DNA of 64,000 nt from assembly GCA_022703645.1 (NCBI GenBank), contig JAKLDG010000001.1, positions 338,814 to 402,813 on the forward strand, given 5' to 3'. The position numbers and the translations under genes were made by a program. This stretch comes from Patescibacteria group bacterium. GTDB lineage: Bacteria > Patescibacteriota > JACPGU01. The number at the start of each line of letters is the position of its first letter. Within the stretch, counting starts at the first letter, position 1. Shown in pieces: positions 59 through 60,602 of the stretch. The notes beneath the pieces are model-generated. The model made no database searches and was not told the DNA's origin. It saw nothing but the letters and a program-made list of their open reading frames with translations.

Positions 59-125
59 CAAAGGAATCTATACAATAAAATATATAGTAGGATTTCTTTG
101 TAAAGGAGAAATTTACGAAGTACTT
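59..125 (+). promoter_or_regulatory. Recurrent leader element, copy A (stem CAAAGGAATC/GATTTCTTTG, then AAGGAG-N6-ACGAAG)
   Basis: Same layout and similar core as the copies at 40624-40695 and 59263-59340. Lies 40-60 nt upstream of the next CDS. Confidence 0.4.
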
Positions 126-166
126 GTAGGGAAATCTTCTAACGAAGATTTTGCGAAAAGTACGTA

Positions 167-2320: not shown

Positions 2321-2382
2321 TGTAGATTCTGTTATAATAAGAACAATTAAACAAGAAAGAAAAAAAACAATAAAACAAGGAT

Positions 2383-6578: not shown

Positions 6579-7145
6579 CTAAGCTCTTTTTGCAATATTC
6601 TTAGGGTTATTCATATCCCGACCCCACGTTGATGGATTTGATTCTATATAAGAATAAATTTCATCGTAAGATTTTTCATTGCGGATAATGTGTTCATAAT
6701 AGTTGCGTTGCCAGATACGATTTTCAAATGGTATTAATATATTTTGTTTAACCCCATCAATGCATTTTTTCGTTGTTAGTGATTTAAAACGTTGAATTAT
6801 TTGCGGCAATGACAGTTGTTTTTCTGTAGGGGCAAACCCCCGTGTTTGCCCGTTTTTAATTGGGCGGACACAGGGGTCCGCCCCTACGATACAGATAATC
6901 AAATGTATATGATTTGGCATAACAGAAAATATATCTACCTCGATATTTGAATAATACTTTGGGATTTCTTCTATCGTTTGGAAAATTATTATCCCAATAT
7001 CATTCAATCTCATCCCTCCATCAACAATTTCTCCGAACAAACACCCTCTATCTTGTGTACATATTGTAATAAAATAATCTCCGGGTTCGGAATAATCATA
7101 ACCTTTTATTCGTATTGACCTTCTGTTTTTGTTTTCTTTTTACAT
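6579..7145 (-). CDS. REP-associated tyrosine transposase (RAYT / IS200-like Y1 HUH), copy 1; codon 2 is TAA
   Basis: HUH motif MPNHIHLII and Tyr motif WQRNYYEHIIRNE. The N-terminus (RRSIRIKGYDYSEPGDYFITICT) is open upstream of the track start, but the reading is ATG TAA AAA where the paralog has ATG TCA AAA. Confidence 0.7.
6826..6887. repeat. GC-rich double-hairpin palindrome (GTAGGGGC...GCCCCTAC family) inside RAYT copy 1
   Basis: GTAGGGGCAAACCCCCGTGTTTGCCCGTTTTTAATTGGGCGGACACAGGGGTCCGCCCCTAC. Encodes the VGADPCVRPIKNGQTRGFAPT loop. Confidence 0.8.
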
Positions 7146-17292: not shown

Positions 17293-17826
17293 TTATTTTT
17301 CAAGATCATCAATCATTTTGTCGCATTCTTTTCTAATTAATTTGATACCATTATTGCCCTTAGTATTAAGGCAACGTGTGTCAACTTTGTAGGATGATTC
17401 GCAAATTGTAGCTGCACAACCAGAACCGAGTAAGTCGAAGGTCGGTTCTTCTTTGGAATTAAGGCAAAGGTCTATCTTTTTCATAAGCATATAAGCATTC
17501 TTGCAAGATGGCTCTACTCTGTACGCTATCGACACTGGCTTTTTTGCATTATTGCTCAAGTTTCTCAACATTTTAATGCTTTTATCTTGAGAATTCTTAA
17601 TCTGTTTTACCTTTCCGTTAATTTCTTTCGTAGTATTATATAATTCATCAATTTTCTGCGACTGTTCAGGCGTAAAACCTATGCCGAACATGCCCGTGCT
17701 AATGATATCATTACCATTATGCGTGATCCTGTTCATAATTTTACTATGCGCAATAAATGGTATCGCCGGAATCATCAAAATAAAAGCGATAATGACAATC
17801 AATGCTCCGATAGGAAACTTATTCAT
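17293..17826 (-). CDS. Membrane-anchored Cys-containing hypothetical protein
   Basis: ATG at 17826 preceded by GAGGTGA. TM helix FPIGALIVIIAFILMIPAIPFI. Confidence 0.5.
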   Translation of the reverse strand: MNKFPIGALIVIIAFILMIPAIPFIAHSKIMNRITHNGNDIISTGMFGIGFTPEQSQKIDELYNTTKEINGKVKQIKNSQDKSIKMLRNLSNNAKKPVSIAYRVEPSCKNAYMLMKKIDLCLNSKEEPTFDLLGSGCAATICESSYKVDTRCLNTKGNNGIKLIRKECDKMIDDLEK

Positions 17827-18087
17827 TTTCACCTCATTCACCTCTATGAGTAGAATTGTATCCTCCAACTGGAGGAGGCCAAACATTTATATAAGCGAAA
17901 AAATCTTCGCGTTGAACTGATTGTTAGGGTACAAATGTTACACTCGTAATATTATCATTTTTATTTAACATTGTCAAGCCTTTCGTATAATATTCTCGAT
18001 CATATTGCATTATTCACTTATAATCCGCTTTTTGCTTGCGAACCGAACAGAAATATGAGATGATAAAAAGAAAACAAAAATTATAAA

Positions 18088-20610: not shown

Positions 20611-21183
20611 TATAAATTCATGGTATTTTTCCTTAAAATATTCTTAGGATTATTGCTGTCTCGTTCCCACATTTGCGGATTGGATTCTATGTAACTATAA
20701 ATTTCATCGTACGATTTTTCATTGCGAATGATGTGTTCGTAATAGCCGCGTTGAAAAATGGGGTTGCCTGTTTTGTCTAAGATAATATTTATCTTTTTCG
20801 TTGATTGATATTTAAAATACCCAATTATTTGTCCTAATGTTGGTTTTTTATCCCGTAGGGGCGGGGTCTCCCCGCCCTGAATTAAATTGTTTTTGTTACC
20901 TACAAATATCGTTTTTCTCTTCTAATATCCGCAATATAAAATGAATATGATTTGGCATTATCTGAAAAATATCTAATTTTGTATTTGGGAAATGATTCGG
21001 AATTTCGTACCAACATTTTTCTGCAACATTTCCAATCTTATTTAATTCCATTTTCCCATCCACAATTTCCCCAAACAAACATTCTCTGTCTTTTGTGCAG
21101 ATCGTAACAAAATAATCTCCAGGTTCGGAATAATCATATTCTTTAATCCGTATCGATTTTCTATTTCGTTCGATTTTTGACAT
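20611..21183 (-). pseudogene. RAYT / IS200-like Y1 transposase, copy 2, split by a 1-nt frameshift
   Basis: The N-terminal ORF (to MPNHIHFILRILEEKNDICR*) and the C-terminal part (…LGQIIGYFK…RGYYEHIIRNEKSYDEIYSYIESNP…) are in different frames. Removing one A from the GAGAAAAAC run joins them. Confidence 0.75.
20854..20876. repeat. GC-rich hairpin (GTAGGGGC family, single arm) inside RAYT copy 2
   Basis: GTAGGGGCGGGGTCTCCCCGCCC. Confidence 0.65.
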
Positions 21184-21218
21184 TTTTATTTTGATTATAG
21201 CATATTTTCATTTCCCTC

Positions 21219-30089: not shown

Positions 30090-30548
30090 TTATTTTTTAA
30101 AAATAATTGCTACGCCTAATAAAATAATAATCAATGGAAGGAAGATATCCCAAATATTCCAATTAAGAAATTGCTGAAGGAGCAATCCCACACCAATAAA
30201 AATCAGTATAACTGCCACAATATTGCGAGTCTTGGAATAATCTATCTCGCGGTTTTGGGTTTTGATTTCTTTTGCTATATCATTCACTTTGTCTTTTACA
30301 TCCTGCCCAAAATCCTTCAGCTTTTCTTTGATTTCCGGTTCTTTCGCATCAACAGCATCTTCTTCCGGTACAAAAATCGCTAAAAGAATATAAATAATAA
30401 TTCCAACGCCACTAAATAATATTAATAAAACAAAAATGACACGAACCAAAGTTGAGTCCATGTCAAAAAATTCGGCTAATCCTCCGCAAACGCCTAAAAA
30501 AATTCGGTCTTTTTTACTGCGAAATAAAGTTTTCGATTCTTTTTTCAT
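30090..30548 (-). CDS. PspC-domain membrane protein
   Basis: LFRSKKDRIFLGVCGGLAEFFDMDSTLVRVIFVLL. Confidence 0.8.
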   Translation of the reverse strand: MKKESKTLFRSKKDRIFLGVCGGLAEFFDMDSTLVRVIFVLLILFSGVGIIIYILLAIFVPEEDAVDAKEPEIKEKLKDFGQDVKDKVNDIAKEIKTQNREIDYSKTRNIVAVILIFIGVGLLLQQFLNWNIWDIFLPLIIILLGVAIIFKK

Positions 30549-30573
30549 AGTTTTATTATTATATCATAAAAAC

Positions 30574-30682
30574 ATATCAAAATGCAAATATCAAAGTGTA
30601 AAATGACAAATTAAAATTAAAAATGTATAATATGCCAAAGGCATACCAAAATTTTACATTTTGATTTTTAAATTTTAAATTT
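30574..30682. repeat. Solo copy of the TGTAAAATG hairpin element with GC mini-hairpin core
   Basis: Left arm ...ATCAAAGTGTAAAATGACAAATTAAAATTAAAAATG, core TATGCC-AAA-GGCATACC, right arm AAAATTTTACATTTTGATTTTTAAATTTT. Confidence 0.7.
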
Positions 30683-40464: not shown

Positions 40465-40623
40465 TTTTATACCCTCCATTTTGATTTTTTAAAAAACACG
40501 CAGAATATTCAGATTTAATAATTAAATAATAGTACAAATAAGAGTTTTTTTCAATGCCTTTTGCATTTTATTATTTATGCTATAATGAAAAAATAGATGT
40601 ATTTCTTAAAATATTATTTAACC

Positions 40624-40695
40624 AAGAAAAAATTTATGCCAGATTATTTGGTATGATTTTTTCTTAAAAGGAGGATTTTCACGAAAGCTTACGGA
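40624..40695 (+). promoter_or_regulatory. Recurrent leader element, copy B
   Basis: AAGAAAAAATT...GATTTTTTCTT stem, then AAAAGGAGGATTTTCACGAAAGCT. Near-identical to copy C. Confidence 0.45.
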
Positions 40696-40723
40696 GAATA
40701 AAACTGAAATTTTTTTCTCAAAA

Positions 40724-41056
40724 GTGGGAGTGGAATTACGACGGGTGGAAGGTTTTATTAATTTTATTAAAGAGCAGGGGGTTGTCGGGTTAGCTGTTGG
40801 TTTTATTCTCGGCGGCGCAGTATCAAAAGTTGTTTCGGCTCTCGTAACAGATATTATTAATCCATTTATTGGGTTAGGGCTCGGTGCGGTAGGGGATATT
40901 AAATCCGCTTCTTTTTCCGTAGGTTCGGCTACGATTCTTTATGGAGATATGATTGGCGTGGTTATTGATTTTCTTGTAATCGCGCTCGTTGTGTATTTTG
41001 GAGTTAAGATATTTCGCTTTGACAAGCATGATAAAAAGCCGGTTAAGGCAAAGTAA
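40724..41056 (+). CDS. mscL: Large-conductance mechanosensitive channel
   Basis: FIKEQGVVGLAVGFILGGAVSKVVSALVTDIINPFIG. Start uncertain (GTG at 40724 or 40745). Confidence 0.85.
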   Translation: MGVELRRVEGFINFIKEQGVVGLAVGFILGGAVSKVVSALVTDIINPFIGLGLGAVGDIKSASFSVGSATILYGDMIGVVIDFLVIALVVYFGVKIFRFDKHDKKPVKAK

Positions 41057-46500: not shown

Positions 46501-49500
46501 ATGATTGTGGTAAAGAAAAAGAAAATACCTTTAAGACCGTTTTTAATCCTCTTAGTGTTAATAGCTGGGTTTACTTTGAGTTTGGGTTTAAAACCAAATG
46601 AAAAAATAAAAGCGGCTTATTCTAATCCTTGCAAGACAGCTGGCACGTATGCTGGTTATGTAGTTGACGCGAATCTTAATGTTATTATTCCGGCTTACAA
46701 TAATGCTGTGTTTGGTGACACTTTCTATGATAGTACCAGCAAAGAAATTCATTGTAAAAGCATAACGATAGAAACGGGAGCGACTTTAGATATATCGCCA
46801 AAAACTACCGGTGCAAGTAAAACAGGCGGCACAAATTATAGAAGATTGGTTCTTGATGGTGATTTGAATATCGCAAGCGGTGGAACGCTAAATCTATATG
46901 GCGGCAATATATATAATACCGGCGGACTCAATGGCACTGGGATAACAAATGATGGAAAAGGATATGGTATGAATGTTATGGTTGGTGGAAATGTTTTGGT
47001 TGAATCCGGCGGATGGATATCAGCTGATGGCAAAGGGTATGAACATAGTAAGGGGCCGGGAGCAGGTGTGGCTGAACCCGGTTCACAAGGCGCTGCATAT
47101 GGTGGGGCTGGTCCGGATGGAACCAATTGTTATGGGAAATATTACGGTTCGGTTTCTGACCCGATAGAACTCGGCAGCGGCAGTAGTTTGGGAGTAGGAG
47201 GCGGAGTAGTTGATATAACTGCCGCGGGAACAATATTAATTCGCGGCGTAGGCAAAATTACGGCAAACAGCATTGGAGAGGGATCGGGCGGTTCAGTAAG
47301 ACTCAGCGCCAATACTATTAGTAGTACAATTGACGGCGTAAATATACCTTCTATTACAGCAAATGGCGGTAGTGGGTCTTATTACAGTGGCGGCGGCAGA
47401 ATCGCGCTTTTTTATAATTCATCAAATTTTGGCGGTGATATCAAAGCTATTGCTAACGCCTATGGAGGAGCTGGCACTGTATTCAAGAAAAAAAATATCG
47501 AGGCTTATGGTGATTTAATTATTACAAATAATTATCAGGATCATACCGATAACCCTCCGGACTATACTCCATATGCATATACAAAAATTGGCAAAACAAA
47601 AATCGATTCTGGCACATATAAGAATATCACAGTTAATAAAAGAGCAAACGCTATTATTGAATCTAGTAATATAGTAAACATCAATGGTGGTACTTTTGAA
47701 GTAAATAATTCCAAACTTGAAAATAAAGGCACTTTAGCTTCACAGACTTCCGCAGAAAAATTTCTGGCGAAAAATACCGCTCGGATACTTAATAGCGGTA
47801 CAGGGTTATTTAGCCTGTCCGCGAACTCAAACGCTATATTTGACGGCATAGACACTTATTTTGAGAACCAAAATAATATTATCCAAAATTTCGCCAATTT
47901 AACTATCTCTAACGGGGCTGTCATGAGCCATGCCGTCAATGATGCTACCGGTGTGACAAATTGTCTTAGGAATTCAATTGATAATCCAGTTGGCGGCGCG
48001 ATCCCTCCTTGCGAATATAAGGATTGGGGTGATGGCTATGGGAAACATTGGAATCAAAAATATACCTTAAGGATAAATGCCACAAGTGTTAATATTGATA
48101 ACAAAAGTTCGATAGATGTTTCACAAAAGGGATTTCAAACATTACCTGGAACATCAGGTTTTGGGCCGGGAGGGTCAAGTACGGCTTACTCAATCGGTGG
48201 TTACGCGGGAGGTTCTTATGGTGGCAGAGGTGGTAACGATAATACTGGGGGAGTAAGCGCAGATATTTATGGCGACTCGGATGGAGACCTGAATAATCCA
48301 AATGATCTGGGAAGCAGCGGTGATACCGGCTATACTGCCGGAGGATTAGTAAGAATAACAGTTTTGGGCGATATTGTTAATAATGGCTCTATATTATCAA
48401 ATTCAGGTACGGTTTCAAATGGTTTTGCCGGTGGGTCAGGAGGAGGCATAAGATTGGATGCAGACCGGATTCTCGGAGCTGGAAAAATTTCTGCCAACGG
48501 CATGCCCGGAACGATAGATCTTGCGAAAGGCGGCGGAGGAGGCGGAAGGATCGCGATCACATACAAAACCACAAAAGATTTTTATGGTCCAATTACCGCT
48601 TATGGAGGGTCTACTGATGGGGGACCCGGTACGATACTTTTTGCAAACAATAGCTCGGGAGCCTTAATTGATAAAGAACTTGTTATTTCTAATTCAGTTT
48701 TAAACGACAATCCAACCAAAATAGGAGGCGGTACGTATAAAAATATTACCGTAAAGAATACCTCGCCAACTCTTACTGACCTGACTTTAGCCGCAATCGT
48801 TTCTGGACAATCCGTTGTCATGCAAGATGGTGGGAATTTTGAAGTTAACCAAACTAATTTAACTAATAGCGGAACTATTTCTTTATTAGCCGGAACGTCA
48901 AATTTAGTTATAAAGGGAAAATCAAATTTTATTAATATCGGACCTACCGCCTCTCCTGGCATTAACGCGAATAGTACTTCTAAAGTTATTTTGGACAATG
49001 CCAATTTTGAAAATAAGAATAATATTGAACAGAATTTTGGCAATCTTTATATCCAGAATGGAGCAATATTAACGCATACTCAAAATGATTACTTAACGGT
49101 AAATTGCGTGAATACTTCCTGTACCAACCAAGACCTGGGTGATGGCAATGGAATGCATTACAATCAGGCTTATACATTAAGAATACATGCAAACAATGCT
49201 TTAATTGATAAATTTAGCGCTATTAATGTTGATGGCAAGGGCTATGACATGGGTAGAGGACCGGGTAATAATGGGTCTGCTAATTCTGCCGGAAGTTATG
49301 GCGGAGCTGCGTCAAGCGGCGACAGTACCTATGGTTTAGCGGATAACCCTAATGATTTGGGCAGTGGAGGTTATTCCGGTAGTTATGGTGATAATACCGG
49401 CGGCGGTTTAGTAAGAGTTAGGGCAGACGGTAATATAACAGTTGATGGCTTTATTTCTTCGGATACAACATCTGCCGGATCTTTTGACGGCGCTTCAGGA

Positions 49501-52500
49501 GGCGGTATAAAATTAATAGCAAATAGTATTCTTGGCTCCGGTTCTATTTCCGCTAGTTCTAATTTGACAAGCGGGAATATTGGCGGAGGTGGCAGAATAT
49601 CTCTCATAGCTACGCAAAAAAATTACAGCGGCACCGTCTCTGTGAATAGAGGTGGAACTGGAGCGAATTACGGTACTATTTATGATTCTCTGGCTATCCC
49701 TACGACTTATGGTCCGAGCGCAACACCATTAACTTATAATACAAAATTAAGTAATAATACTCCATATATAAAAGCCGATAGTTCAGCAACAACGATAGGT
49801 GTTGATGAAGGCAATGCAGTTAGCACTGGATATACTCCAGATTCTGATACCTCACTTCTTTTGAAAATGGATAACTGGGGAGATGGTCTTATTTATGATT
49901 CTTCCGCAAAATCAATACCTGTTATTAAATATGGCACAACTTCCTTCTCTGATACTGTTTTGAAAACTGGAACGCATTCACTATTATTTAATGGTTCCAC
50001 AGGTCGTTTAATACCTGATGGTACTTTTACATCAAATTTCCAGTATGGCACCGGAGCTTTTACTATTGATACTTGGATTTATCCAAAATCTGTTACGACA
50101 CTTCAAACAATTTATTCTCAAAAAAATAGCGCGACACCAACAACTAATGCATCATCATTACAAATTACTACTACCGGTCAGCTAAAATATACTGAAAATG
50201 GAGTTTCTATTATTTCTCCTGTCAGTACTATAAAACTAGGCAGTGATGTCGGATGGCAACATGTTGCTTTAGTTAGAGATAATTTAGGGGTTGAAAGATT
50301 ATTTTATAATGGTTCCGTAGTAGGAACACAGTCGTCTACATACTCCAAATTCAGCGATGTCGGTATCGGATGTTTATACCAGTCTACTAATACATTATTT
50401 TATAATGGCTATATGGATGAGTTCCGTATCAGTAAAGGAGTGGCGCGCTGGACCTCTGATTTTATTCCATTATCTGATGATGGCAACTGGGAAAAATTAA
50501 ATTTGAGAGCAACAAGGACTAACCCTAGCTCCGATACTAAGCTTTTGCTTCATCTCGATGGAACAAATGGATCAACTACCTATACTGACAGTTCTCCTTC
50601 AAACCATACAATATTGCGTTACAACACACCAACAATTTCCACTAACACTAGTAAATTTGGCGGCGCGTCAGGCGCTTTCCCGAGAGTAACCTCTCCATAC
50701 TTTGATTATATTTATGCTAATGATAATGTTAATGATTGGACTTTTGGCGCGGGTGATTTTACGATAGATTTTTGGGCTAACTTTTCAGATAATGTCAGGC
50801 AAGGTGTTCTTGCCATCGGCTCCGGCGCTTATGCTCCAATTGCTTTTGAAGTAGTAAGCAACAATCTTAACGTCTACATGACTAGTAATGGTAGCAGTTG
50901 GGATATCGCTAGCGGTCAACCAGTTGGCCAAACATTTGGTCCGGTAACACCAGGCGTTTGGGTACATTATGCGCTAACAAGGAATGGAAATACTTTTTAT
51001 CTTTTTGTTAATGGTACTACTGTAAACTCTTTTATGTCATCATTAAGTTTATGGAATAATAGCGGCGCTTTATATATAGGGCAATATTTTGGGTCTGTTA
51101 CAGCCTTTAAGGGCTATCTGGATGAATTTAGAATTATAAAGGGAAGAGCGGCTTGGAGTAATAATTTTACTCCTTCTACAACTCCCTATGAAATTTATGA
51201 TGACCCGTCTTTCAATGGAACGGTAGATATTGGCATAATAGATAATCTTGCAGGTGAATATGTTTTTTCCGGCTGCAACGGAGCGAACTGTACTTTTTCA
51301 GATTCAAAAGTTACAGCGAGATTCATAAATGGTATTGCTAATTTAGCAGTAAAAGTAAAAGACAAAAGAGATGGGCAGATAAAGCATCACGGTTTTTCAG
51401 GGCTAAAAATTAACTCCGTTTCAAATGTATCTTATATAAATAATAATCAAATAACCGGAGCTATCGAAATTCAAGATAGAACCCCAGAAAGATCAATACC
51501 ATCAGGTCCTGCCCCCGCAGGAAGTATTACTAAAGGAACTGCTGGCGCTACTATTTTTCCAATGGGAGCCGGTTTTAGTATTATAAATAATTCCAAAGGA
51601 ACCAGTCAGAGCCAACAAGATTTGGGTGGTAATTTAGTGGTTCGAGGTCCATTAGCATCCGCGCCATATCGTCTTTACCTTGATAAAAACATAATGTATA
51701 AAAGAGGTGATTATTTGAATAGCGACGGAACTATTAGCAGCGTGGCAACAGATTATCAAGTGGTTTGTGTTAATACAGCGGACTATACCCAAACAAAAAT
51801 AAGATGTAATGATGATCTGAGCACCAGCGCTATTCCATCAGGATTGCGAAATTATGGTATATATACATTTAATAAAACTTATAATTTCTATACCCAGAAC
51901 GAAACCTCTAATTATTCAGCGCCTTCAATATCTCAAGTTCTTATACCAGCTAGCAACCCAACTGTGCCTGTTATTTCTCCTTTAACAATAACTCCGACTA
52001 ACGGAAAATTAAATCTCAGCTGGAATAATCCAATTGATAATATCGGGCAAACAAAAACTTTGATCGTTAGAGGTATCGATAGTATTCCTACTTTCGTTCC
52101 AAGTGATGGGACGGATTATAATACCTGGTCAAATACTACTGTAACCGGAGAAGAGATGATCTATGACAGCACTAATGTCGGGGCGGGAAGTGAAGTAAAA
52201 AACTTTGACGATGCCAATGTATTTTTTGGAACCAGATACTGCTATACAATCTATGCTCAATATATTGGTTATATTTATTCGGTAGGGACTTCTGCTTGCA
52301 GCACTCTAACATCAATTATTGATCCGCCAGTCAACCCAACTATCACGATTCAAGGAATGATGATAAATATCGGATGGACAGCGCCACCTTCCGGCAATCC
52401 TGATAATTACCTGATTGTTAGAAAAAAAGGCACAACAGAACCAAACTGGAATCCAACCGGGGAAACTGCTGACTATAATATTGGTGATACGGTTGGCGAT

Positions 52501-55500
52501 GGTGTTGTTGTCTGTAAAGGATTTTCATGCACTGATCAAAATGTAAATGTAAATACTTTGCCAACCCAGTATTATTATAAAATTTATGCTCAGTATGGAA
52601 CCGCGGCTCCCTTCAGTTATTCTGTCGGTTCAACGGCAGTAAGCGGAAATCCTAACCCGGAAAACCCCCAAAAGTTTGATAATACCAATGAAGCAACACC
52701 AAGTGTAACACTGGACAATCTATCAGGACCTTACACGCCTCTTAATACATTTAAGATTGCAAATTATCTTGTCTGGAAAGCAACAACTCCGGCTGATTGC
52801 TCAGGGGCTTGGACGCCAACCAATGGAGCTGACTATTCAGGAGTGCAAGGAACTGGAAATATCATTTACAAAAACCCAGCAGCGCCAATATCATATATTG
52901 ATACTGCAGTTACAAATGGCGTTGGTTATTGTTACAAAATCTTTGTCCAATATAATGGTGAAACAATCAATACTACTGATCTAATGTATTCTTCTGGATT
53001 AAGTCTTTGGACTCAACCGCCAAATCATAATCCAACAATTAGCGTAAATAGCATCACCCAAACGATCGGCACGGATAATGTGGTAATTAACTTTAATGTA
53101 AATGATATTGATCCATCTGATAATGGCAAGCTTTCTGTTGGCTTTGCTGTTACAAATCCGGTTTCAGGATGCAGTATTAGCACTTTAACCGGACCAATAA
53201 CTAACCTCGGTGTCGGAGCTCATAGCGTTACTTGGACCGCCACTACCACTAATGGAACCGCGGGGGATTGTCCAGGCGTAGAAATGTTAGCCGGTTCTGC
53301 TCAACTGACAGCCACTGTTTCCGATTTTATCGGAGCCACCGGTACCGCTAGTCCAACTTTCTCTCTTGACACCAAAGCTCCCATTGCAAGTTCCAGCCTT
53401 ATTTTGTCCTCCAAAAACAGCAACTCCATTACTGTCGCTACCGGAGCTACCGGGGCTACTGATGGAAACATAAAAACTACCGCTGCCTATAAAGTCTATT
53501 ACAAGCAAGGATCAACGGTAGACGAAGTAAGCGGTACGCAAATACTACCAAATATTAATAGTTATGTTGCGGGACAGATATTTACTGCTTCCTCGCTAAT
53601 AACTAACCAGCAATATTCATTTAATATCTGGGCTTATGATAACTATGGACATAAAACTGCTGCTACGGTATTAAATGTCAGCACAAAAGGAAAATCTGTT
53701 ACAGGATTTACAGCTATAGTTCAAGGTATGAGAGTCCATCTGAGTTGGGACGCAATGCTGCCGGCGCCAGATAAGCATCTGGTTATTCGTAAGAAAGGAA
53801 CATCCGCGTCTACTTGGACGCCAACAGATGGTATTGGAATATATGCTGCTGGCAACACGGTAGATGCAGATACGATAGTAGTTTACCATGGCACAGGCGT
53901 CACTCTGGATGATGATGCAGTTGATGGAGCAGCCTATACCTATACTATCTTTGCCAACTATTCTGGAAATCTATATTCAGAGGGGGTTTCAGCTCCATCG
54001 ATAACACCGAATGCTCTGAACGCGTCGTTATCTGCTCCTGCCTATATACCAAATGGATCAAATTATGATATCGCACTCAACTGGGTAGCCCCCACACCAA
54101 GTTACAGTTTACAAAAATATGTAGTAGTTAGAGAAGTTGGGTCTCCTACTTGTTTAATCGAATGGACGCCAACCAAGGATAATAACTATAATGCATTAGA
54201 TCCAACCGGCTTTACTAATGAAGAAATTATCTATTCCGGAACCGGAACCACTACTACTGATAATATGGGAGGAACGGGAGTTTCTTCTGGTACAAATGTT
54301 TGCTATAAGATCTTTACTCAATATCTGGGAGATGATTTAGCGGTTCCAACAAACTTAGTTTATTCCGCTGGAATTGCCGCTACCTATGTACCGCCAAATC
54401 TGCCTCCAGAGATAGAGATTGGTTCAGTCACAGCGCTACAAACTACCGGAACTGAAAATATTGTTATAGCTTACCGTGTTAGAGATTCCGACTCAACCAA
54501 TTTGAATATTACATTTAGCATGATTGATCCGGGAGGCTCCACTTGCCAAATGAATTTAACTGATAATTTGGCGGGGATTGATGGCACTTACTATACTCAT
54601 ACCGCTACTTGGAATGCAGGGCTGGCAGGAGAGTGCCCGGGATTTGAAGTAACAAATGCTGTTATCCAAGTAACTGCCAGCGATAGTCTTAATTCTGTTT
54701 CGCAAAACTCCGCTCCATTTCTGCTTGATACTCTATCCCCAAGGCTTCCAACTCCAACTGTTTCTAACTTTAATTTAACTAATTTTTCATCAACAGGAGA
54801 TAAGATATTCTTCAATCTAGGATCTAATTCAACAACTGATACTAATGCGCTTAACTACAAGATATACTATGCTTCTGGGGGAAGTGTTGATGAAACAGGA
54901 ATACTCATAACAGGAGCTCCTATAGCATTTACTCCTGGAGCTGCATATTCGGTAACCGGATTAACACCGGGACAAAACTATACATTTAATATTTGGGCTT
55001 ATGATAAATATGGGCATAAAACTTCTGCGACTTCCGTAACATATTCAACTATTGTGCCTGCTCCGGCAAGCTTCTCTGTAACTCCGCATGGAATGAGATT
55101 ATCACTTACTTGGACGGCTCCTGTCGGTGGAACCCCAGACTATTATCTGATAGTTAGAAAAGCTAATTCAGATCCAATAATAGCTCCCGCTAATGGTTCT
55201 ACATACAACCTGGGGGATATTTTGAGCGGGGGAATGGTAGTCTACAATTCAACCGGGACAAGCCTTGACGATGATAATATTGATGACGGTCCTTACTATT
55301 ACCGAATTTATGCGCATTATTCAAATGGCAATTTCTCACCAGCCTTGGCTGGCAATGCGATTGCAGTGGCGGAAGGACCAAATACATTCAGCGCAACCTC
55401 AAGCCCAGCGCCAGTAGTCACATACATAGACACTCCACCAACAAATAATTTCAGTTTCGAGAACTATCTTATTTGGAAGAAAGAACAACCTAGCTGTACT

Positions 55501-57534
55501 ACTGATGGCAATCTGGTAGACGGTACGGTATATAATTATCTTGATTCAGTAGATGGGGGAACGATTATTTATAAATCAAACATTGATCCTAATGGTATGT
55601 CTGATATCTCAACTACAATAACTGGCCATACTTACTGCTACAAGATGTTCGTAGAGTATAATGGAGAAACTACTAATACTATCTATTCTAATGAAATGTA
55701 CTTTCAAATCACTCCTCCAAATAATCCTCCGACTCTTTCCGCTCTTTCTGTTGTTCAAACAATAGGTAGTGACGATGTTGTAATCGGATTTACTATTAAT
55801 GATCCGGATGGAATTGACGCTGGCAATCTCTCAGTCGCTTTATCAATTGTTAACCCTCCAGAAGGATGCAGTATCGGTACAATATCTGGTTCTTTGACTG
55901 GTTTATCAAATGGTAGTTATTCGGTTACTTGGACTGATGCCGATACTACTTGCCCTGGGCTTGAATTATCTAATGCTGGTTTAGAGTTTATTGCTCACGA
56001 CCTGATAGATTATTCATCTGCGCAGATAAGCAGTTTTTTACTCGACACTAAAGCGCCTACACTAATAGAGGGGCTAACATATGACCCACCAACCGCAGAT
56101 ACTATTGTAGTACGCCTAAGCACCAATACATTCTTCTTAAATCCTTTGAGTGTTGATCAAAATCTAAAAGGAGGAGGAAATAGCTTTAAGATTTACTACA
56201 AACAAGACAGTACCGTTTCAGAATCCGATACACAATTAGCTGCCTTTGATAATTATATCTTAGGGCAAGACTATACGGCCACACCATTAGGATCTAATTC
56301 ACAATATTCATTTAATATCTGGGCTTATGATAACTATGGACATAAGACAGCATATACTGATCCAGTCAAGCCAACTACCAGCGGTCTCAACGGACCACCA
56401 GTAGTACAATATGTTGCTCAACCAGTCCAAGCTGCTGGTACTGGTAATATCAATTTCAGTTTTGAAGTAAAAGATCCAGACTCGGATGGTTTAACTATCA
56501 CATTCTCACTAATTAATAATCCAGTCGGTTGCAGTATCTCTGGCGTTACTGGGTTTACCAATCCTGTATCCTCCACCAGTACTTTTGCAACAATTATCTC
56601 CAGCTGGAATGCGAAATTAACTTGTGATGGAGCGGATCAGTCTGACCTCAAGATCAGAATTAGCGCGGATGATGGAAACGGACATACAGCAACTATTGAT
56701 TCAGATCCATTTACTATCGATACGAAAAATCCTGTCTCTCCAGGAAACCTATCATTCCCAGCAGGAACTACTTTTGCGAATCAGGTTAGTGTAAAGACAA
56801 ATACTATTTCCGGTAGCGATACTAATGCCGATGATTGGCATGTATATAGGGTTGATGGAAATACTTTCCCAACGGATCCATTCTCTCCTGCTCTAACTCC
56901 AATTAAATTATATGATCCTTATATACCAGATGACGTATTTATTGATTCGGGGTTAACGCCAGATTCTGATTATACTTATAATATCTGCCTGCATGATACT
57001 TTTATGAACTTTACCTGCGCAACATCGCAAACTATTCATACACCAGCTTCAATATTAAGCTTTAATATTCTTGGTATTGCCAGTGGAATATCGGTTGGAG
57101 TTGAAACAACTAATATCACTACTACTTCTACAACAATTCCTTTTGGCAGTACTACAGTAGGGGATACAAAGGTTGGAGCGCTTGATCTACAAGGCACAAC
57201 AAATCTGGTTAATGGATATACTATTGATATCAGACAAGACCAAGATTTAACATCAGGAGGCAACACTATTCCTGCCCTTACCTCTACTAACGCTAGTCCG
57301 CAAGTATGGCCACCAACTCCAATTAGTTCTTTCTTTGGATATTCATCAATCAATCTTTCCAGATTTTCAAATGGCGTTAATTGGGCAGGATTAACTTTGT
57401 CTGACCTACCGATAGTAACACAGATAAACGGGACTCATGATGATGATGTTTTATTCAAATTATCCACCAAGAGTCCTCAACCAGCAGGAACTTATCAAAA
57501 CACCATTACTTTCTCAATAATGGCGAATCCGTAG
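46501..57534 (+). CDS. Giant (3677 aa) secreted/surface protein: three Gly-rich beta-helix-like blocks, two LamG-like domains, FN3-like repeats, four Cys-pair/Asp-rich modules, distinct C-terminal domain
   Basis: Single uninterrupted ORF with an N-terminal TM/signal. LamG-type motifs GTGAFTIDTWIYPKS...YMDEFRISKGVARW and GAGDFTIDFWANFSD...YLDEFRIIKGRAAW. The repeated motif FNIWAYD(N/K)YGHKT occurs three times. Confidence 0.85.
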   Translation: MIVVKKKKIPLRPFLILLVLIAGFTLSLGLKPNEKIKAAYSNPCKTAGTYAGYVVDANLNVIIPAYNNAVFGDTFYDSTSKEIHCKSITIETGATLDISPKTTGASKTGGTNYRRLVLDGDLNIASGGTLNLYGGNIYNTGGLNGTGITNDGKGYGMNVMVGGNVLVESGGWISADGKGYEHSKGPGAGVAEPGSQGAAYGGAGPDGTNCYGKYYGSVSDPIELGSGSSLGVGGGVVDITAAGTILIRGVGKITANSIGEGSGGSVRLSANTISSTIDGVNIPSITANGGSGSYYSGGGRIALFYNSSNFGGDIKAIANAYGGAGTVFKKKNIEAYGDLIITNNYQDHTDNPPDYTPYAYTKIGKTKIDSGTYKNITVNKRANAIIESSNIVNINGGTFEVNNSKLENKGTLASQTSAEKFLAKNTARILNSGTGLFSLSANSNAIFDGIDTYFENQNNIIQNFANLTISNGAVMSHAVNDATGVTNCLRNSIDNPVGGAIPPCEYKDWGDGYGKHWNQKYTLRINATSVNIDNKSSIDVSQKGFQTLPGTSGFGPGGSSTAYSIGGYAGGSYGGRGGNDNTGGVSADIYGDSDGDLNNPNDLGSSGDTGYTAGGLVRITVLGDIVNNGSILSNSGTVSNGFAGGSGGGIRLDADRILGAGKISANGMPGTIDLAKGGGGGGRIAITYKTTKDFYGPITAYGGSTDGGPGTILFANNSSGALIDKELVISNSVLNDNPTKIGGGTYKNITVKNTSPTLTDLTLAAIVSGQSVVMQDGGNFEVNQTNLTNSGTISLLAGTSNLVIKGKSNFINIGPTASPGINANSTSKVILDNANFENKNNIEQNFGNLYIQNGAILTHTQNDYLTVNCVNTSCTNQDLGDGNGMHYNQAYTLRIHANNALIDKFSAINVDGKGYDMGRGPGNNGSANSAGSYGGAASSGDSTYGLADNPNDLGSGGYSGSYGDNTGGGLVRVRADGNITVDGFISSDTTSAGSFDGASGGGIKLIANSILGSGSISASSNLTSGNIGGGGRISLIATQKNYSGTVSVNRGGTGANYGTIYDSLAIPTTYGPSATPLTYNTKLSNNTPYIKADSSATTIGVDEGNAVSTGYTPDSDTSLLLKMDNWGDGLIYDSSAKSIPVIKYGTTSFSDTVLKTGTHSLLFNGSTGRLIPDGTFTSNFQYGTGAFTIDTWIYPKSVTTLQTIYSQKNSATPTTNASSLQITTTGQLKYTENGVSIISPVSTIKLGSDVGWQHVALVRDNLGVERLFYNGSVVGTQSSTYSKFSDVGIGCLYQSTNTLFYNGYMDEFRISKGVARWTSDFIPLSDDGNWEKLNLRATRTNPSSDTKLLLHLDGTNGSTTYTDSSPSNHTILRYNTPTISTNTSKFGGASGAFPRVTSPYFDYIYANDNVNDWTFGAGDFTIDFWANFSDNVRQGVLAIGSGAYAPIAFEVVSNNLNVYMTSNGSSWDIASGQPVGQTFGPVTPGVWVHYALTRNGNTFYLFVNGTTVNSFMSSLSLWNNSGALYIGQYFGSVTAFKGYLDEFRIIKGRAAWSNNFTPSTTPYEIYDDPSFNGTVDIGIIDNLAGEYVFSGCNGANCTFSDSKVTARFINGIANLAVKVKDKRDGQIKHHGFSGLKINSVSNVSYINNNQITGAIEIQDRTPERSIPSGPAPAGSITKGTAGATIFPMGAGFSIINNSKGTSQSQQDLGGNLVVRGPLASAPYRLYLDKNIMYKRGDYLNSDGTISSVATDYQVVCVNTADYTQTKIRCNDDLSTSAIPSGLRNYGIYTFNKTYNFYTQNETSNYSAPSISQVLIPASNPTVPVISPLTITPTNGKLNLSWNNPIDNIGQTKTLIVRGIDSIPTFVPSDGTDYNTWSNTTVTGEEMIYDSTNVGAGSEVKNFDDANVFFGTRYCYTIYAQYIGYIYSVGTSACSTLTSIIDPPVNPTITIQGMMINIGWTAPPSGNPDNYLIVRKKGTTEPNWNPTGETADYNIGDTVGDGVVVCKGFSCTDQNVNVNTLPTQYYYKIYAQYGTAAPFSYSVGSTAVSGNPNPENPQKFDNTNEATPSVTLDNLSGPYTPLNTFKIANYLVWKATTPADCSGAWTPTNGADYSGVQGTGNIIYKNPAAPISYIDTAVTNGVGYCYKIFVQYNGETINTTDLMYSSGLSLWTQPPNHNPTISVNSITQTIGTDNVVINFNVNDIDPSDNGKLSVGFAVTNPVSGCSISTLTGPITNLGVGAHSVTWTATTTNGTAGDCPGVEMLAGSAQLTATVSDFIGATGTASPTFSLDTKAPIASSSLILSSKNSNSITVATGATGATDGNIKTTAAYKVYYKQGSTVDEVSGTQILPNINSYVAGQIFTASSLITNQQYSFNIWAYDNYGHKTAATVLNVSTKGKSVTGFTAIVQGMRVHLSWDAMLPAPDKHLVIRKKGTSASTWTPTDGIGIYAAGNTVDADTIVVYHGTGVTLDDDAVDGAAYTYTIFANYSGNLYSEGVSAPSITPNALNASLSAPAYIPNGSNYDIALNWVAPTPSYSLQKYVVVREVGSPTCLIEWTPTKDNNYNALDPTGFTNEEIIYSGTGTTTTDNMGGTGVSSGTNVCYKIFTQYLGDDLAVPTNLVYSAGIAATYVPPNLPPEIEIGSVTALQTTGTENIVIAYRVRDSDSTNLNITFSMIDPGGSTCQMNLTDNLAGIDGTYYTHTATWNAGLAGECPGFEVTNAVIQVTASDSLNSVSQNSAPFLLDTLSPRLPTPTVSNFNLTNFSSTGDKIFFNLGSNSTTDTNALNYKIYYASGGSVDETGILITGAPIAFTPGAAYSVTGLTPGQNYTFNIWAYDKYGHKTSATSVTYSTIVPAPASFSVTPHGMRLSLTWTAPVGGTPDYYLIVRKANSDPIIAPANGSTYNLGDILSGGMVVYNSTGTSLDDDNIDDGPYYYRIYAHYSNGNFSPALAGNAIAVAEGPNTFSATSSPAPVVTYIDTPPTNNFSFENYLIWKKEQPSCTTDGNLVDGTVYNYLDSVDGGTIIYKSNIDPNGMSDISTTITGHTYCYKMFVEYNGETTNTIYSNEMYFQITPPNNPPTLSALSVVQTIGSDDVVIGFTINDPDGIDAGNLSVALSIVNPPEGCSIGTISGSLTGLSNGSYSVTWTDADTTCPGLELSNAGLEFIAHDLIDYSSAQISSFLLDTKAPTLIEGLTYDPPTADTIVVRLSTNTFFLNPLSVDQNLKGGGNSFKIYYKQDSTVSESDTQLAAFDNYILGQDYTATPLGSNSQYSFNIWAYDNYGHKTAYTDPVKPTTSGLNGPPVVQYVAQPVQAAGTGNINFSFEVKDPDSDGLTITFSLINNPVGCSISGVTGFTNPVSSTSTFATIISSWNAKLTCDGADQSDLKIRISADDGNGHTATIDSDPFTIDTKNPVSPGNLSFPAGTTFANQVSVKTNTISGSDTNADDWHVYRVDGNTFPTDPFSPALTPIKLYDPYIPDDVFIDSGLTPDSDYTYNICLHDTFMNFTCATSQTIHTPASILSFNILGIASGISVGVETTNITTTSTTIPFGSTTVGDTKVGALDLQGTTNLVNGYTIDIRQDQDLTSGGNTIPALTSTNASPQVWPPTPISSFFGYSSINLSRFSNGVNWAGLTLSDLPIVTQINGTHDDDVLFKLSTKSPQPAGTYQNTITFSIMANP

Positions 57535-58289: not shown

Positions 58290-58321
58290 CTCTAATTCGC
58301 TCTAAATGATATAATATAGCA

Positions 58322-59179
58322 ATGAGCAATCAAGACGATGTCCGCATAAATATTTTAGGAATTCCTATCGATCGGGTAGGTTATATTGATGTTTTAGATA
58401 AGATTGAATACTATATAAAAAAAGGCGGGTATCACTATATCGCAACGGTTAATCCAGAGTTTATTATGCACGCGGCGCAAGATAGCGAGTTTAAAAAAGC
58501 ACTACAAAATTCGAACTTAAATACAGCTGATGGCGTCGGAATCGTATGGGCAAGTAAATATCTTGCGAAAACTCAAAAATCAAATCTCAAATCTCAAAAT
58601 TTAAGCATCACTTCGCGATTTATTTATAAAATCAAAAAGATATTCTGGTTGAAAATTTCTTTGTTCTCAATTTTATTTAACCGTCGTTGGCTCTATTCTG
58701 AAATTCCGGAGCGTGTTACCGGAGCAGACCTGATCTGGAAAATAGCAAAAAAAGCGCAAGATGAAGGCTGGAAAATTTTCCTACTTGGAGCAGGGGAGGG
58801 AGTCGCGGGAAACGTTGCGGGAAAATTGAAATCAAAATTCCCGAAAATTAATATTGTCGGTACTTATTCAGGCCGCCCGGAAGAAGAGGGGATTGCTGAT
58901 AGAGTTGCCGGATATGAACCGGATATTTTGTTTGTTGCTTTTGGCTCTCCTCGACAGGAAAAATTCATTTATAACAATTTGGATAAGCTCAATGCAAAAG
59001 TTGTTATTGGAGTCGGTGGAACATTTGATTTTATTGCTGGGCTAGCAAGAAGAGCGCCAAGATTTATGAGGAGATTCGGAATTGAATGGTTATGGAGACT
59101 TGTCTGCCAACCATTTCGAATCGGCAGAATTATCAACGCTTTTCCAAAATTTGTCTGGAAAGTTTGGAGGGGTAAATAA
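58322..59179 (+). CDS. WecB/TagA/CpsF-family glycosyltransferase with ~40-aa insert
   Basis: VNPEFIM, NTADGVGIVWA, ERVTGADL, FLLGAGEGVA, LFVAFGSPRQE, RAPRFMRRFGIEWLWRL. Confidence 0.8.
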   Translation: MSNQDDVRINILGIPIDRVGYIDVLDKIEYYIKKGGYHYIATVNPEFIMHAAQDSEFKKALQNSNLNTADGVGIVWASKYLAKTQKSNLKSQNLSITSRFIYKIKKIFWLKISLFSILFNRRWLYSEIPERVTGADLIWKIAKKAQDEGWKIFLLGAGEGVAGNVAGKLKSKFPKINIVGTYSGRPEEEGIADRVAGYEPDILFVAFGSPRQEKFIYNNLDKLNAKVVIGVGGTFDFIAGLARRAPRFMRRFGIEWLWRLVCQPFRIGRIINAFPKFVWKVWRGK

Positions 59180-59220
59180 TTTGACAAGTAAATTTGGATG
59201 TTGTAAAATAGAAATATAAT

Positions 59221-59245
59221 AGAGTAGAAATACTCTGTTTTTTTG
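59221..59245 (+). terminator. Rho-independent terminator of the 42.9-59.2 kb operon
   Basis: AGAGTA-gaaa-TACTCT followed by a T7 run. Confidence 0.6.
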
Positions 59246-59262
59246 TTTTTAAAATTAATACG

Positions 59263-59340
59263 AAGAAAAAATCTATACCAATAATTAATATACTATAATA
59301 GGATTTTTTCTTAAGAGGAGGAATTTTACGAAAGCTGGAG
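59263..59340 (+). promoter_or_regulatory. Recurrent leader element, copy C
   Basis: AAGAAAAAATC (59263-59273) pairs with GATTTTTTCTT (59302-59312), then AAGAGGAGGAATTTTACGAAAGCT. The loop contains TATAAT. Confidence 0.45.
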
Positions 59341-59393
59341 CAAACAAAATTTTTTAAATTTTGGATGCGAAAGTGAGAGTAAAATTGTGACGA

Positions 59394-60602
59394 ATGAACG
59401 AAGAATTTATTTCCGCTCTCGAACAAATCGCTGAAGAGAAAAAAATTAGCAAAGAATCTATTCTGGAGGCTACTGAATCAGCCCTAGCGGCAGCATACCG
59501 TAAAGATTATGCAAAGCCGTCCCAGACAATCAGATGTAAAATCGACCCCGTAAAAGGTACTACAGAATTCTGGTTGGAGAAGAAGATTGTCGAAGAAGTT
59601 GCCGACGAAAACGCAGAAATATTGCTTGCTGACGCGCTAAAAGAAGACAAAGATGCGGTTATCGATGGTGTTATCAAATACCCGCTGCCAACCAAAGAAG
59701 ATTTTGGCAGAATAGCAGCGCAGACTGCAAAGCAGGTTATTATCCAGAAGCTTAAGGAGGTTGAGCGCGAAGTTGTATTTGATGAATACAAAACACTTGA
59801 AGGCAAACTTTTAAATGGAGTTGTCCAACAGATTGAAGGCGGAAATATTATTGTTGATTTGGGAAGAGCAAATGGCGTTATGTTTCCATCAGAACAAATC
59901 ACCGGTGAAAATTACCGGGTGGGACAAAGAATAAAAGTACTACTTCTACGAGTTGAACAAACAAACAAGGGTCCGCAAATTATGGTTAGCCGCGCGGCTG
60001 ATGATGTTATTAAATATTTATTTATGATTGAAGTTCCAGAAATTGAAGCTGGGTCAGTCGCTATAATGGGAATCGCAAGAGAAGCGGGGGTAAGAACAAA
60101 AATGTCAGTGCGAGCGCTTCAGGAAGGTGTTGACCCAGTTGGATCTTGCGTTGGACAACGTGGCACACGCGTACAAGCAGTTCTTGGTGAAATTGGCAAC
60201 GAAAAAATAGACATTGTGCTCTGGAATGAAGAACCGGAAACATATATTGCAAATGCATTATCTCCGGCCAAAATAGATAGTGTTAAATTAAATAAGAGAG
60301 CAAAAGAAGCTTTAGTTATTGTAAACCCAGACCAATTATCTTTAGCAATCGGTAAAAACGGACAAAACGTTCGCCTTGCCGCTAGATTAACTGATTGGAA
60401 AATAGATGTTATTGAAGTTGGTTCTGAGGCGGCAAAAAGTTTTAAAGAAGATAAAGATGAAGAACAAGAAAAGAAGAAAGTAAAAAAAGAAGAAAGTAAA
60501 AAGAAAAAGAAAAATATAAAGGAGGGAAAAGAGAAAGAACCGGAGAAAAATAAGAAAGAGAAAAAGTCTGCAACAAAGAAAAAAGAAACTGAGAAAAAAT
60601 AA
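59394..60602 (+). CDS. nusA: Transcription termination/antitermination factor NusA with Lys/Glu-rich tail
   Basis: S1 domain GVVQQIEGGNIIVDLG. KH domains VGSCVGQRGTRVQAV and AIGKNGQNVRLAARLT. Confidence 0.95.
   Translation: MNEEFISALEQIAEEKKISKESILEATESALAAAYRKDYAKPSQTIRCKIDPVKGTTEFWLEKKIVEEVADENAEILLADALKEDKDAVIDGVIKYPLPTKEDFGRIAAQTAKQVIIQKLKEVEREVVFDEYKTLEGKLLNGVVQQIEGGNIIVDLGRANGVMFPSEQITGENYRVGQRIKVLLLRVEQTNKGPQIMVSRAADDVIKYLFMIEVPEIEAGSVAIMGIAREAGVRTKMSVRALQEGVDPVGSCVGQRGTRVQAVLGEIGNEKIDIVLWNEEPETYIANALSPAKIDSVKLNKRAKEALVIVNPDQLSLAIGKNGQNVRLAARLTDWKIDVIEVGSEAAKSFKEDKDEEQEKKKVKKEESKKKKKNIKEGKEKEPEKNKKEKKSATKKKETEKK

Follow-up and report, generated by a model that had tools for sequence, protein, structure and literature searches.

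A recurrent two-hairpin leader element in front of genes of Patescibacteria, possibly with a split ribosome-binding site

Three copies of the element in the window

The DNA studied here, called the window, is a stretch of 64,000 nucleotides (nt) from a Patescibacteria group bacterium (GenBank assembly GCA_022703645.1, contig JAKLDG010000001.1, positions 338,814 to 402,813). The source is the metagenome-assembled genome of an uncultured member of this group of ultra-small bacteria. The window carries on the plus strand three copies of a leader element, which precede a gene for a DUF5652 membrane protein (copy A), mscL (copy B) and nusA (copy C); the NusA protein encoded downstream of copy C is identical to HRY60382.1. 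An initial annotation of the window had placed look-alike elements of ~75 nt at 59-125, 40624-40695 and 59263-59340, and all three copies were found there. The proposed length is too short, however, as the likeness in a 160-nt alignment of the three sites runs on through a second hairpin (64-67 nt) to the start codon. The full element extends from 57 to 185 in copy A, from 40623 to 40749 in copy B and from 59262 to 59398 in copy C, with ~128 nt up to the start codon.

The element consists, in this order, of a hairpin P1, the segment UUAAAGGAG, an irregular hairpin P2 of 59-69 nt that begins directly after GGAG, 6-7 nt containing GAC, and the start codon (Table 1). The parts described before could all be seen: the stem of P1 is formed by AAGAAAAAATC/GATTTTTTCTT in copies B and C and by ACAAAGGAATC/GATTTCTTTGT in copy A, where both arms have changed and one pair is G-U, the loop starts with TATAC(C)A, and AAGGAG/AGGAGG is followed 6 nt later by ACGAA(A/G). 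Chance was ruled out as the source of the likeness: the 21-mer GATTTTTTCTTAARAGGAGGA occurs twice in the window versus 0 expected occurrences, and a second common block downstream, the 23-mer AAAGTGNGAGTNNAATTNNGACG, twice versus 0.05 expected. With the covariance model described below, the three copies reach expectation values (E) of 6e-22, 1e-13 and 1.5e-13.

Folding of each window leader resulted in the same architecture, i.e., a P1 of 12 AU-rich base pairs, unpaired AA(A/G)(A)GGAG(G), a long irregular P2, a short tail containing GACG, and the start codon. The z-scores are -7.7 for copy A (minimum free energy -41.4 kcal/mol), -2.8 for copy B and -5.75 for copy C. A mechanical scan of the whole window for this geometry found, among real gene starts, only the three sites, each with a hairpin of 64-66 nt and 7 nt to the start.

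Table 1. Features of the three leaders in the window.
Feature	Position	Strand	Remarks
Copy A, -10 hexamer TAAAAT of promoter-like site	5-10	+	TTGACA -35 just before the window start
Copy A, hairpin P1 (ACAAAGGAATCT ... GGATTTCTTTGT)	58-101	+	both arms differ from B and C, pairing retained
Copy A, Shine-Dalgarno sequence AAAGGAG	102-108	+	unpaired, abuts P2 directly
Copy A, hairpin P2, 66 nt	109-174	+	P2a AAAUUUAC/GUGAAUUU, P2b GUACUU/AAGUAC, P2c AAAUCUUC/GAAGAUUU; purine-rich internal loops
Copy A, 7-nt spacer AGACGCC and ATG of DUF5652 gene (182-601)	175-184	+	PF18893, E = 1.4e-17
Copy B, extended -10 promoter-like site TGcTATAAT	40578-40586	+	36 nt before the element
Copy B, hairpin P1 (AAGAAAAAATTT ... 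TGATTTTTTCTT)	40624-40665	+	
Copy B, Shine-Dalgarno sequence AAAAGGAG(G)	40666-40673	+	
Copy B, hairpin P2	40674-40738	+	base helix UUUCAC/GUGGAA, internal loop GAAA/GGGA
Copy B, spacer CGACGG and GTG start of mscL (40745-41056)	40739-40747	+	PF01741, E = 2.5e-20, match from residue 1
Copy C, promoter-like site TTGACA-17-TAAAAT	59181-59209	+	11/12 matches; same promoter kept in nusA leaders of relatives
nusA leader, short hairpin AAUAGAGUA/UACUCUGUU, then U-run	59218-59246	+	terminator/attenuator-like; upstream of the repeated element, not part of it
Copy C, hairpin P1 (AAGAAAAAATCT ... GGATTTTTTCTT)	59263-59312	+	
Copy C, Shine-Dalgarno sequence AAGAGGAGG	59313-59321	+	
Copy C, hairpin P2, 65 nt	59322-59386	+	base helix AAUUUUAC/GUAAAAUU, internal loop GAAA/GAGA; leader z-score -5.75
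Copy C, 7-nt spacer GTGACGA and ATG of nusA (59394-60602)	59387-59396	+	

An RNA family in related Patescibacteria

A covariance model was built from 19 copies and run over ~288 kb including the window and contigs of relatives. In total, 26 full and 3 partial copies were identified; the full copies are distributed over the window and 14 other contigs of related Patescibacteria, and two proteins encoded on such contigs, S3 of L016 and L11 of L019, bear the label 'candidate division CPR3'. The leader is thus common to unrelated genes, as initially proposed, and a local duplication does not explain the likeness. In a metagenome scan with a pattern for P1 and the Shine-Dalgarno (SD) sequence, 17 copies were found on 16 contigs; P1 and SD are present in all 17, and all but the first copy on contig L023 continue into a P2 of the same design.

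The covariance model gave no matches in the unrelated loci or viral contigs examined. In viral contigs, the P1+SD pattern had 0 matches and a loose P2 pattern 3 chance matches. A narrow gapped pattern modeled on copies B and C, applied to a collection of genome contigs that did not include the source genome, matched seven times in unrelated phyla; none of these matches fits the covariance model and they were discarded as chance. Searching sub-profiles with nhmmer revealed no copies of P1 or P2 alone beyond the three partial ones. The flanks of the window genome (L031, L033, L040) hold no more copies, so that ~104 kb of this genome contain only three. No Rfam family matched the element at the gathering threshold, and at E up to 10 only noise of 11-13 bits appeared; the self-cleaving ribozyme families in Rfam gave no match. 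A literature search for a leader of this kind in Patescibacteria or the Candidate Phyla Radiation (CPR) found no description. The element is a genuine and previously uncurated family of structured RNA leaders, which in this sampling was encountered solely in the genome of the window and on contigs of related Patescibacteria. It is well supported as a new family for Rfam.

In a MAFFT alignment of 19 copies, 93.2% of the pair cells hold standard pairs, compared to 31-62% when the partners are slid by 1-3 columns, and double (compensatory) changes occur in 20 of 35 pairs; none of 500 shuffles reached the observed values. For the 26 model-aligned copies, where pairing is biased towards the structure by construction, 93.9% standard pairs were counted (30.5-61.2% after sliding by 1-3 columns, 0 of 500 shuffles reaching the observed values), with compensatory changes in 28 of 35 pairs, six of them in P1. 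P2 is composed of the helices P2a, P2b and P2c, separated by conserved purine-rich internal loops, the commonest of which are of the type 5′-GCGAA/3′-AGAGU and 5′-GUAGA/3′-AGGCG. A K-turn in these loops or at the base of P2 was considered and rejected, as the loops are symmetric (3x3 or 5x5) and have no 3-nt bulge beside a C-stem in the alignment read by eye. The option of a regulatory RNA structure, one of those named in the initial annotation, is a fair description of the element.

Another of those options, a tiny leader peptide started at the ACG 6 nt after the SD, can practically be dismissed. ACG does occupy this position in the three window copies, but across the family the triplet is ACG, GCG, AUG, GUG or AAG and hence not kept as any start codon. 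The frames and their lengths differ as well, from AUG-UAA in L018 to ~30 codons out of frame with the gene in L024. ACGAA represents the 3′ end of helix P2a plus the first nucleotides of an internal loop; its paired nucleotides change in a compensatory and not in a synonymous manner.

The spacing of the parts is narrowly set. Between GGAG and P2 the gap is 0 nt in all 26 full copies, while the length of P2 ranges from 59 to 69 nt. The start codon follows P2 after 6 nt (12 copies), 7 nt (8 copies) or 11 nt (one copy). The tail after P2 contains GAC(G/A) in all 26 full copies, from where it is 1-3 nt, once 6 nt, to the start of the gene. According to the folding prediction, the SD is largely single-stranded, with a mean probability of 0.73 of being unpaired. 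In all mRNA-linked copies AAGGAG/AGGAGG lies ~72 nt before the start codon, and no comparable SD is located at a distance of up to 12 nt from it. Other genes of this genome make use of canonical SDs, such as clpC with AGGAGG 9 nt ahead of its ATG.

Genes and tRNAs downstream of the element

All 29 copies, full and partial, are co-oriented with the downstream gene and abut its start. The genes encode eight kinds of ribosomal proteins, namely S19 (two copies), S3 (two copies), S14, L10, L11, L27, L32 and L35. The non-ribosomal ones are nusA (two copies) and the genes for MscL, a DUF5652 protein, a cyclophilin, SecG, a DUF520/YajQ protein, a Phd/YefM antitoxin and a TrmB-type regulator. Five of the 26 full copies precede tRNA genes (Lys, Ile, Cys, Phe and Val, the last being cut by the contig end). 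There, the +1 position of the tRNA lies 5-8 nt after P2, usually after GACG and one further nucleotide, and so occupies the slot that holds AUG elsewhere. The SD with GGAG is kept in all five tRNA-linked copies, with no start codon after it.

About half of the copies have a promoter-like site at most 130 nt upstream; the others are intercistronic, such as those between the genes for L2 and S19, L22 and S3, and L5 and S14 in one S10-spc operon. Promoter-like sites precede all three window copies outside the element; on contig L031 of the same genome (L031 position 10001 = window position 182), the site of copy A, TTGACA-17-TAAAAT, lies at 9800-9828, ~43 nt before P1. A promoter within the P1 loop, as suggested at first, is not borne out, since the canonical promoter-like sites (TTGACA-17-TAAAAT, TGcTATAAT) are found 10-75 nt upstream of P1, which itself covaries with G-U pairs, a sign of an RNA structure.

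More generally, it is very unlikely that the element acts on transcription, be it as an antitermination RNA of the Nus-factor/boxA or put-like type or as a promoter or operator in P1. Such a role would agree with the presence in tRNA-gene leaders, including one in L029 upstream of tRNA-Ile followed by the 23S and 5S rRNA genes, with the NusB encoded in the genome and with TATAAT-like hexamers in the P1 loop of some copies. It would also agree with UUCUUAAA, which by eye is loosely like the boxA core CUCUUUAA. This by-eye comparison, in which UUCUUAAAGGA resembles boxA (GCUCUUUAACAA-like) at ~7 of 12 positions, concerns nucleotides mostly inside the stem of P1, where the boxA-like stretch is base-paired. 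Co-transcription of the L029 tRNA-Ile with the 23S gene is doubtful given a promoter-like site and a terminator-like hairpin between them, and two or three copies are found within one ribosomal-protein operon. The loop hexamers have no -35 partner and a promoter scan places the promoters upstream, while G-U pairs and compensatory changes in P1 favor an RNA over a DNA palindrome bound by a dimer.

In a check for rRNA mimicry, BLAST of the element against the 23S and 5S genes of L029 gave only a 13-nt match at chance level (E = 1.3) to GUGAGACAGUUUGGUCC. This locus (L029 405-4503) is composed of tRNA-Ile, a spacer of 540 nt with its own promoter-like site and terminator-like hairpin, 23S and 5S. 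The 23S gene of 3.2 kb is ~270 nt longer than the Rfam model of 2925 positions, so that an insertion is probable. No 16S gene is located upstream, and the rRNA genes appear to be unlinked.

The common slot of AUG and tRNA +1 can also be read as a sign of RNA processing, in which an endonuclease would recognize P2 and the GAC tail and cut a few nucleotides downstream, creating leaderless mRNAs and tRNA 5′ ends. This is improbable. Both kinds of start indeed follow GAC(G/A) after 1-3 nt, many genes of the window genome seem to be leaderless, a -10 box preceding their ATG by 6-11 nt (for example at 58322, 20896-21183 on the minus strand and 30090-30548 on the minus strand), and about half of the copies are intercistronic. 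Against it, the distance from P2/GAC to the start varies (6, 7 or 11 nt in mRNAs, 5-8 nt in tRNAs), which fits a tolerance window better than a nuclease that measures by a ruler. Moreover, an invariant strong SD would be pointless if cut off and is used at normal spacing in orthologues without P2, no self-cleaving ribozyme family matches, and RNase P alone already sets tRNA 5′ ends.

Gain and loss of the modules among relatives

Among nusA orthologues, the distribution of the element is patchy: it is present in L010 (NusA 79% identical), where the P1 sequence is unchanged and P2a covaries, and absent from L008, L012 and L013. In L008 (protein 80% identical), the shared upstream sequence is followed by ...AAAATTAGTTT-AGGAGG-ACGA-ATG, which equals copy C minus P1 and P2. 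Partial copies were found before hisS of L010, where P1 is followed by AGAGGGGA-CTAT-ATG without P2, and before rpsN of L016, which has SD and P2, no P1, and GAU in place of GAC. In L023, a unit of P1 and SD is followed by a full copy. The rpsC (S3) leader of L034 reads TTAAAAGGAG-[15-nt GC hairpin]-GGACGC-ATG, and the orthologous site in L016 and L026 carries the full element. Otherwise, the element is absent from the S10-spc operons of L034-L036, and it is also missing from the L11-L10 regions of the window genome (L040) and of L041. In orthologues without P2, the same SD is located 4-5 nt from the same start codon. Any hairpin at this place, be it of full size or the mini version, directly follows GGAG and leaves 6-7 nt to the start.

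All nusA leaders of the clade (window 59181-59252; L008, L010, L012 and L013, ~100-230 nt before nusA) contain a strong promoter of the TTGACA/TATAAT type, directly followed by a short hairpin (AAUAGAGUA...UACUCU) and at least seven U. The hairpin and the U-run resemble a terminator or attenuator and might be used in autoregulation of NusA.

The copies upstream of rpsC in L016 and rplK in L019, which stem from the same metagenome and possibly from one genome, show only ~2 differences in P2, and a duplicative spread of the element within genomes is likely. A selfish miniature repeat of the MITE (miniature inverted-repeat transposable element) or REP (repetitive extragenic palindromic) kind that spreads between intergenic sites and is merely tolerated is nevertheless quite improbable. 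Patchy presence at orthologous genes, the near-identical pair of copies, the precise gain or loss of hairpin modules and a fragment of an IS200-like Y1 transposase gene in the window (6579-7040) would be in line with it. A mere repeat would not account for the 29 of 29 copies that are co-oriented exactly at a gene start, nor for helices that diverge by compensatory changes while the loops stay conserved, which points to selection on the RNA. In addition, no target-site duplications were observed when occupied and empty sites were compared, terminal inverted repeats were not observed either, the transposase gene has no copy of P1 or P2 next to it, and there are only three copies in ~104 kb of the window genome.

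Interpretation as a split ribosome-binding site

We favor, with a probability of about 0.5, a split ribosome-binding site of the kind known from the phage T4 genes 38 and 25, carried by a modular leader that acts in cis. In the orthologues that lack P2, GGAG stands at a distance of 4-5 nt from the start codon, which marks it as the probable working SD of the downstream gene. The initial annotation had described a conserved 'standby' SD and start codons 35-60 nt further on with weak SDs of their own. Its view that the strong SD is meaningful is supported. The large distance and the weak SDs were a reading made without knowledge of P2, and the supposed standby site is most likely the gene's own SD, which would be 6-7 nt from the start once P2 is looped out.

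The element is transcribed from an upstream promoter or situated between cistrons, and the RNA folds into P1, single-stranded UUAA(A/G)(A)GGAG, P2, the 6-7-nt spacer containing GAC and the start codon. The existence of the family, its structure and spacing, its gene contexts and its modular build are established by these data. According to the favored interpretation, with P2 looped out, the SD would come to lie 6-7 nt from a start codon that is ~72 nt away in the linear sequence, and we infer that the ribosome bridges P2. By analogy to known leaders, P1 and the SD probably act as a 5′ stabilizer as well, in that the hairpin and a bound 30S subunit would block decay in the 5′-to-3′ direction. 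Stabilization of this kind could also serve untranslated RNA and so could account for the copies before tRNA genes, with which a further role is probably shared. The conserved purine-rich loops of P2 suggest an additional docking of some partner, which may be the ribosome, a protein or a nuclease.

The split site would explain apparently 'SD-less' starts and mis-called N-termini. The list of open reading frames (ORFs), for instance, starts the mscL frame at the GTG at 40724, which lies inside P2, and not at the GTG at 40745. For L11 of the window genome, recorded in forms of 152 and 141 amino acids (aa), the element is absent upstream and the extension has another cause.

Several observations weigh against a split ribosome-binding site with a stabilizing P1. 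In five of 26 copies the tRNA +1 takes the slot of AUG, which a function in translation does not explain and the stabilizer idea does not require, and these copies also keep the structure by compensatory changes. Conserved internal loops would not be required in a simple looped-out spacer, for which the mini-hairpin of 15 nt in L034 seems to be enough. The hairpin of 65 nt is far larger than the T4 precedents, where the linear distance between SD and AUG is 22-27 nt. As to stabilization, P1 lies 10-75 nt downstream of promoter-like sites, whereas classical 5′ stabilizers sit at the transcript end.

The conserved loops and the tRNA-linked copies would find an explanation if the element were primarily a docking site for a trans-acting factor (protein, ribosome or nuclease) that binds the purine loops of P2, possibly with a GGAG/GAC closure, and gates the gene start. 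With only 5-8 nt left between the end of P2 and the AUG or tRNA +1, a factor bound there would block access of the ribosome or RNase P, so that mRNAs and tRNAs could be regulated together. We regard this as possible, though doubtful. It is consistent with internal loops that are conserved while the helices covary, with GGAG and GAC being invariant in 26 of 26 full copies including the tRNA-linked ones, with the equal distance to AUG and tRNA +1, and with the many targets that belong to the translation apparatus (S19, S3, S14, L10, L11, L27, L32, L35, tRNAs, nusA). The folding model, furthermore, at times predicts a closure of the P2 base that involves the SD, formed by a G-C pair and tandem G.A pairs. 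The mean predicted probability of this closure is 0.23, exceeding 0.5 in four of 26 copies, and a closure by G-C and tandem sheared G.A pairs is presented here as an idea and not as a finding. The set of carrier genes differs between close relatives, unlike a conserved regulon: S19, S3, L11 and L10 carry the element in some genomes, but not in the window genome, L034-L036 or L041. The copy at rpsN of L016 has GAU and not GAC, and a candidate binding protein was not identified.

A related proposal is still more tentative. A nuclease or RNA-binding protein dedicated to this lineage could recognize P2 and its GGAG/GAC flanks as a module and act at a short, constant distance before AUG and tRNA +1. 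If true, such a module would constitute a punctuation or gating system that sets or controls 5′ ends for translation and tRNA maturation in reduced genomes, following a logic like that of mitochondrial tRNA punctuation or of intercistronic processing elements in chloroplasts. The same module abutting tRNA genes is in any case a concrete puzzle, and with its ~130 nt the RNA offers an experimentally tractable handle on translation initiation and RNA 5′-end metabolism in Patescibacteria.

Further features of the window genome and related contigs

Several genes lack an SD and are preceded by a TATAAT-like -10 box (often TGnTATAAT), the end of which is just 6-11 nt from the ATG; they lie in the window at 58300-58324, 20896-21210 (minus strand) and 30090-30575 (minus strand) and in L033 at 17520-17545. 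Such a box is found, for example, in tgaTATAATatagcaATG upstream of the WecG-family gene (58322) and in TATAATataaataATG upstream of the poly(A) polymerase gene of L033. These genes are probably transcribed as leaderless or near-leaderless mRNAs. Many other genes have AT-rich upstream regions without an SD.

In long intergenic spacers of the window genome, a second and different repeat consists of arrays of the degenerate 7-nt unit ATTGRAW (attggatattgattggatattgg, attgagaattgattgaaaattggaaattg). It was found in the window at 61236-61292 (upstream of clpC) and in L040 at 10470-10520 (L11-L1 spacer) and 17800-17860 (L10-L12 spacer), and spacers of L034 hold related AT-rich repeats (ataaagt, ctaaaag). 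Downstream of clpC, at 63880-63975, another SD-like sequence, AGAGGAGGATTTCTAAGAAAATCG, precedes a hairpin rich in GC (gggtccattatccc) and one more AAAAGGGGCGCGCAATG start. This region is weakly like the theme of an SD combined with a structure and is not recognized by the covariance model.

On the minus strand at 5307-6152, a fusion protein of 281 aa is encoded with an N-terminal NusB (E = 4e-34) and a C-terminal NUDIX hydrolase domain (E = 1e-19), an unusual combination of an antitermination factor with a possible domain of the RNA pyrophosphohydrolase type. The gene adjoins those for RNase III (4527-5219, minus strand) and L32. The transposase fragment mentioned above (minus strand) is an ORF of 153 aa whose match to the IS200-like Y1 transposase family (PF01797, E = 1.7e-6) is confined to the C-terminal half of that family, and it could be a degraded or domesticated (RAYT-like) transposase. 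A giant ORF of 3677 aa with a Pfam match to Laminin_G_3 at 46501-57534 (plus strand) probably encodes one of the very large surface proteins that CPR genomes often contain. Finally, L031 contains, ~7 kb upstream of the window, 1.3 kb between rbfA and the next gene (2325-3601) with no called gene, tRNA or Rfam match.

Comparison with known systems

Correia/NEMIS elements of Neisseria and the enterobacterial REP/BIME sequences are transcribed miniature repeats. Like these, the element is multi-copy, hairpin-forming, intergenic, co-transcribed with genes and patchy between relatives. It differs from them in its strict orientation and placement, its low copy number, the clear selection on RNA structure, and in that no terminal repeats or target duplications were seen.

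With the autoregulatory leaders of ribosomal-protein genes (L10, S15 and L20 in Rfam) the element shares a structured 5′ leader with irregular helices that could bind a protein. Unlike in those leaders, one motif precedes eight ribosomal-protein genes, tRNAs and unrelated genes (mscL, secG, antitoxin, TrmB regulator), relatives differ in the genes that carry it, and no Rfam leader family matches. The association with one particular operon that would be expected of such a leader was not seen, and the corresponding operons of L034-L036, L040 and L041 lack the element.

In Gram-positive bacteria, a 5′ stem-loop and/or a strong SD can protect downstream RNA even without a start codon (PMC3997798). 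The order of a hairpin followed by a strong SD is shared with the aprE leader of B. subtilis and the cryIIIA STAB-SD of B. thuringiensis (PMC3997798) and would fit the tRNA-linked copies. In contrast to these single-gene features, the element is a multi-copy family, P1 is not at the predicted 5′ end of the transcript, and its SD seems to be used, across P2, by the start codon downstream as well. Processing might create a 5′ end at the AU-rich tract that precedes P1. In the ~104 kb of the window genome that were read, RNase III and the NusB-NUDIX fusion were found but no RNase J, although no search aimed at it was made.

The split ribosome-binding sites of T4 genes 38 and 25, in which a hairpin shortens the distance between SD and start codon from 22 to 5 nt and from 27 to 11 nt, respectively (PMC3014915; Nivinskas et al., 1999; Malys and Nivinskas, 2009), share with the element an SD that is too far from the start in the linear sequence and a hairpin in between that gives a functional distance (here from ~72 to 6-7 nt). 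In both cases, relatives may lack the arrangement. The T4 hairpins are short simple stems, whereas P2 comprises 59-69 nt in three helices with conserved purine-rich loops. Further differences are the second conserved hairpin P1 in front, the occurrence before tRNA genes, and the reuse as a module, with more than 20 different cellular genes from many genomes as carriers. If the split-site interpretation is true, a mechanism known from two phage T4 genes would be a reusable cellular module at dozens of genes of an uncultured lineage with minimal genomes, with a hairpin ~3 times larger than any precedent.

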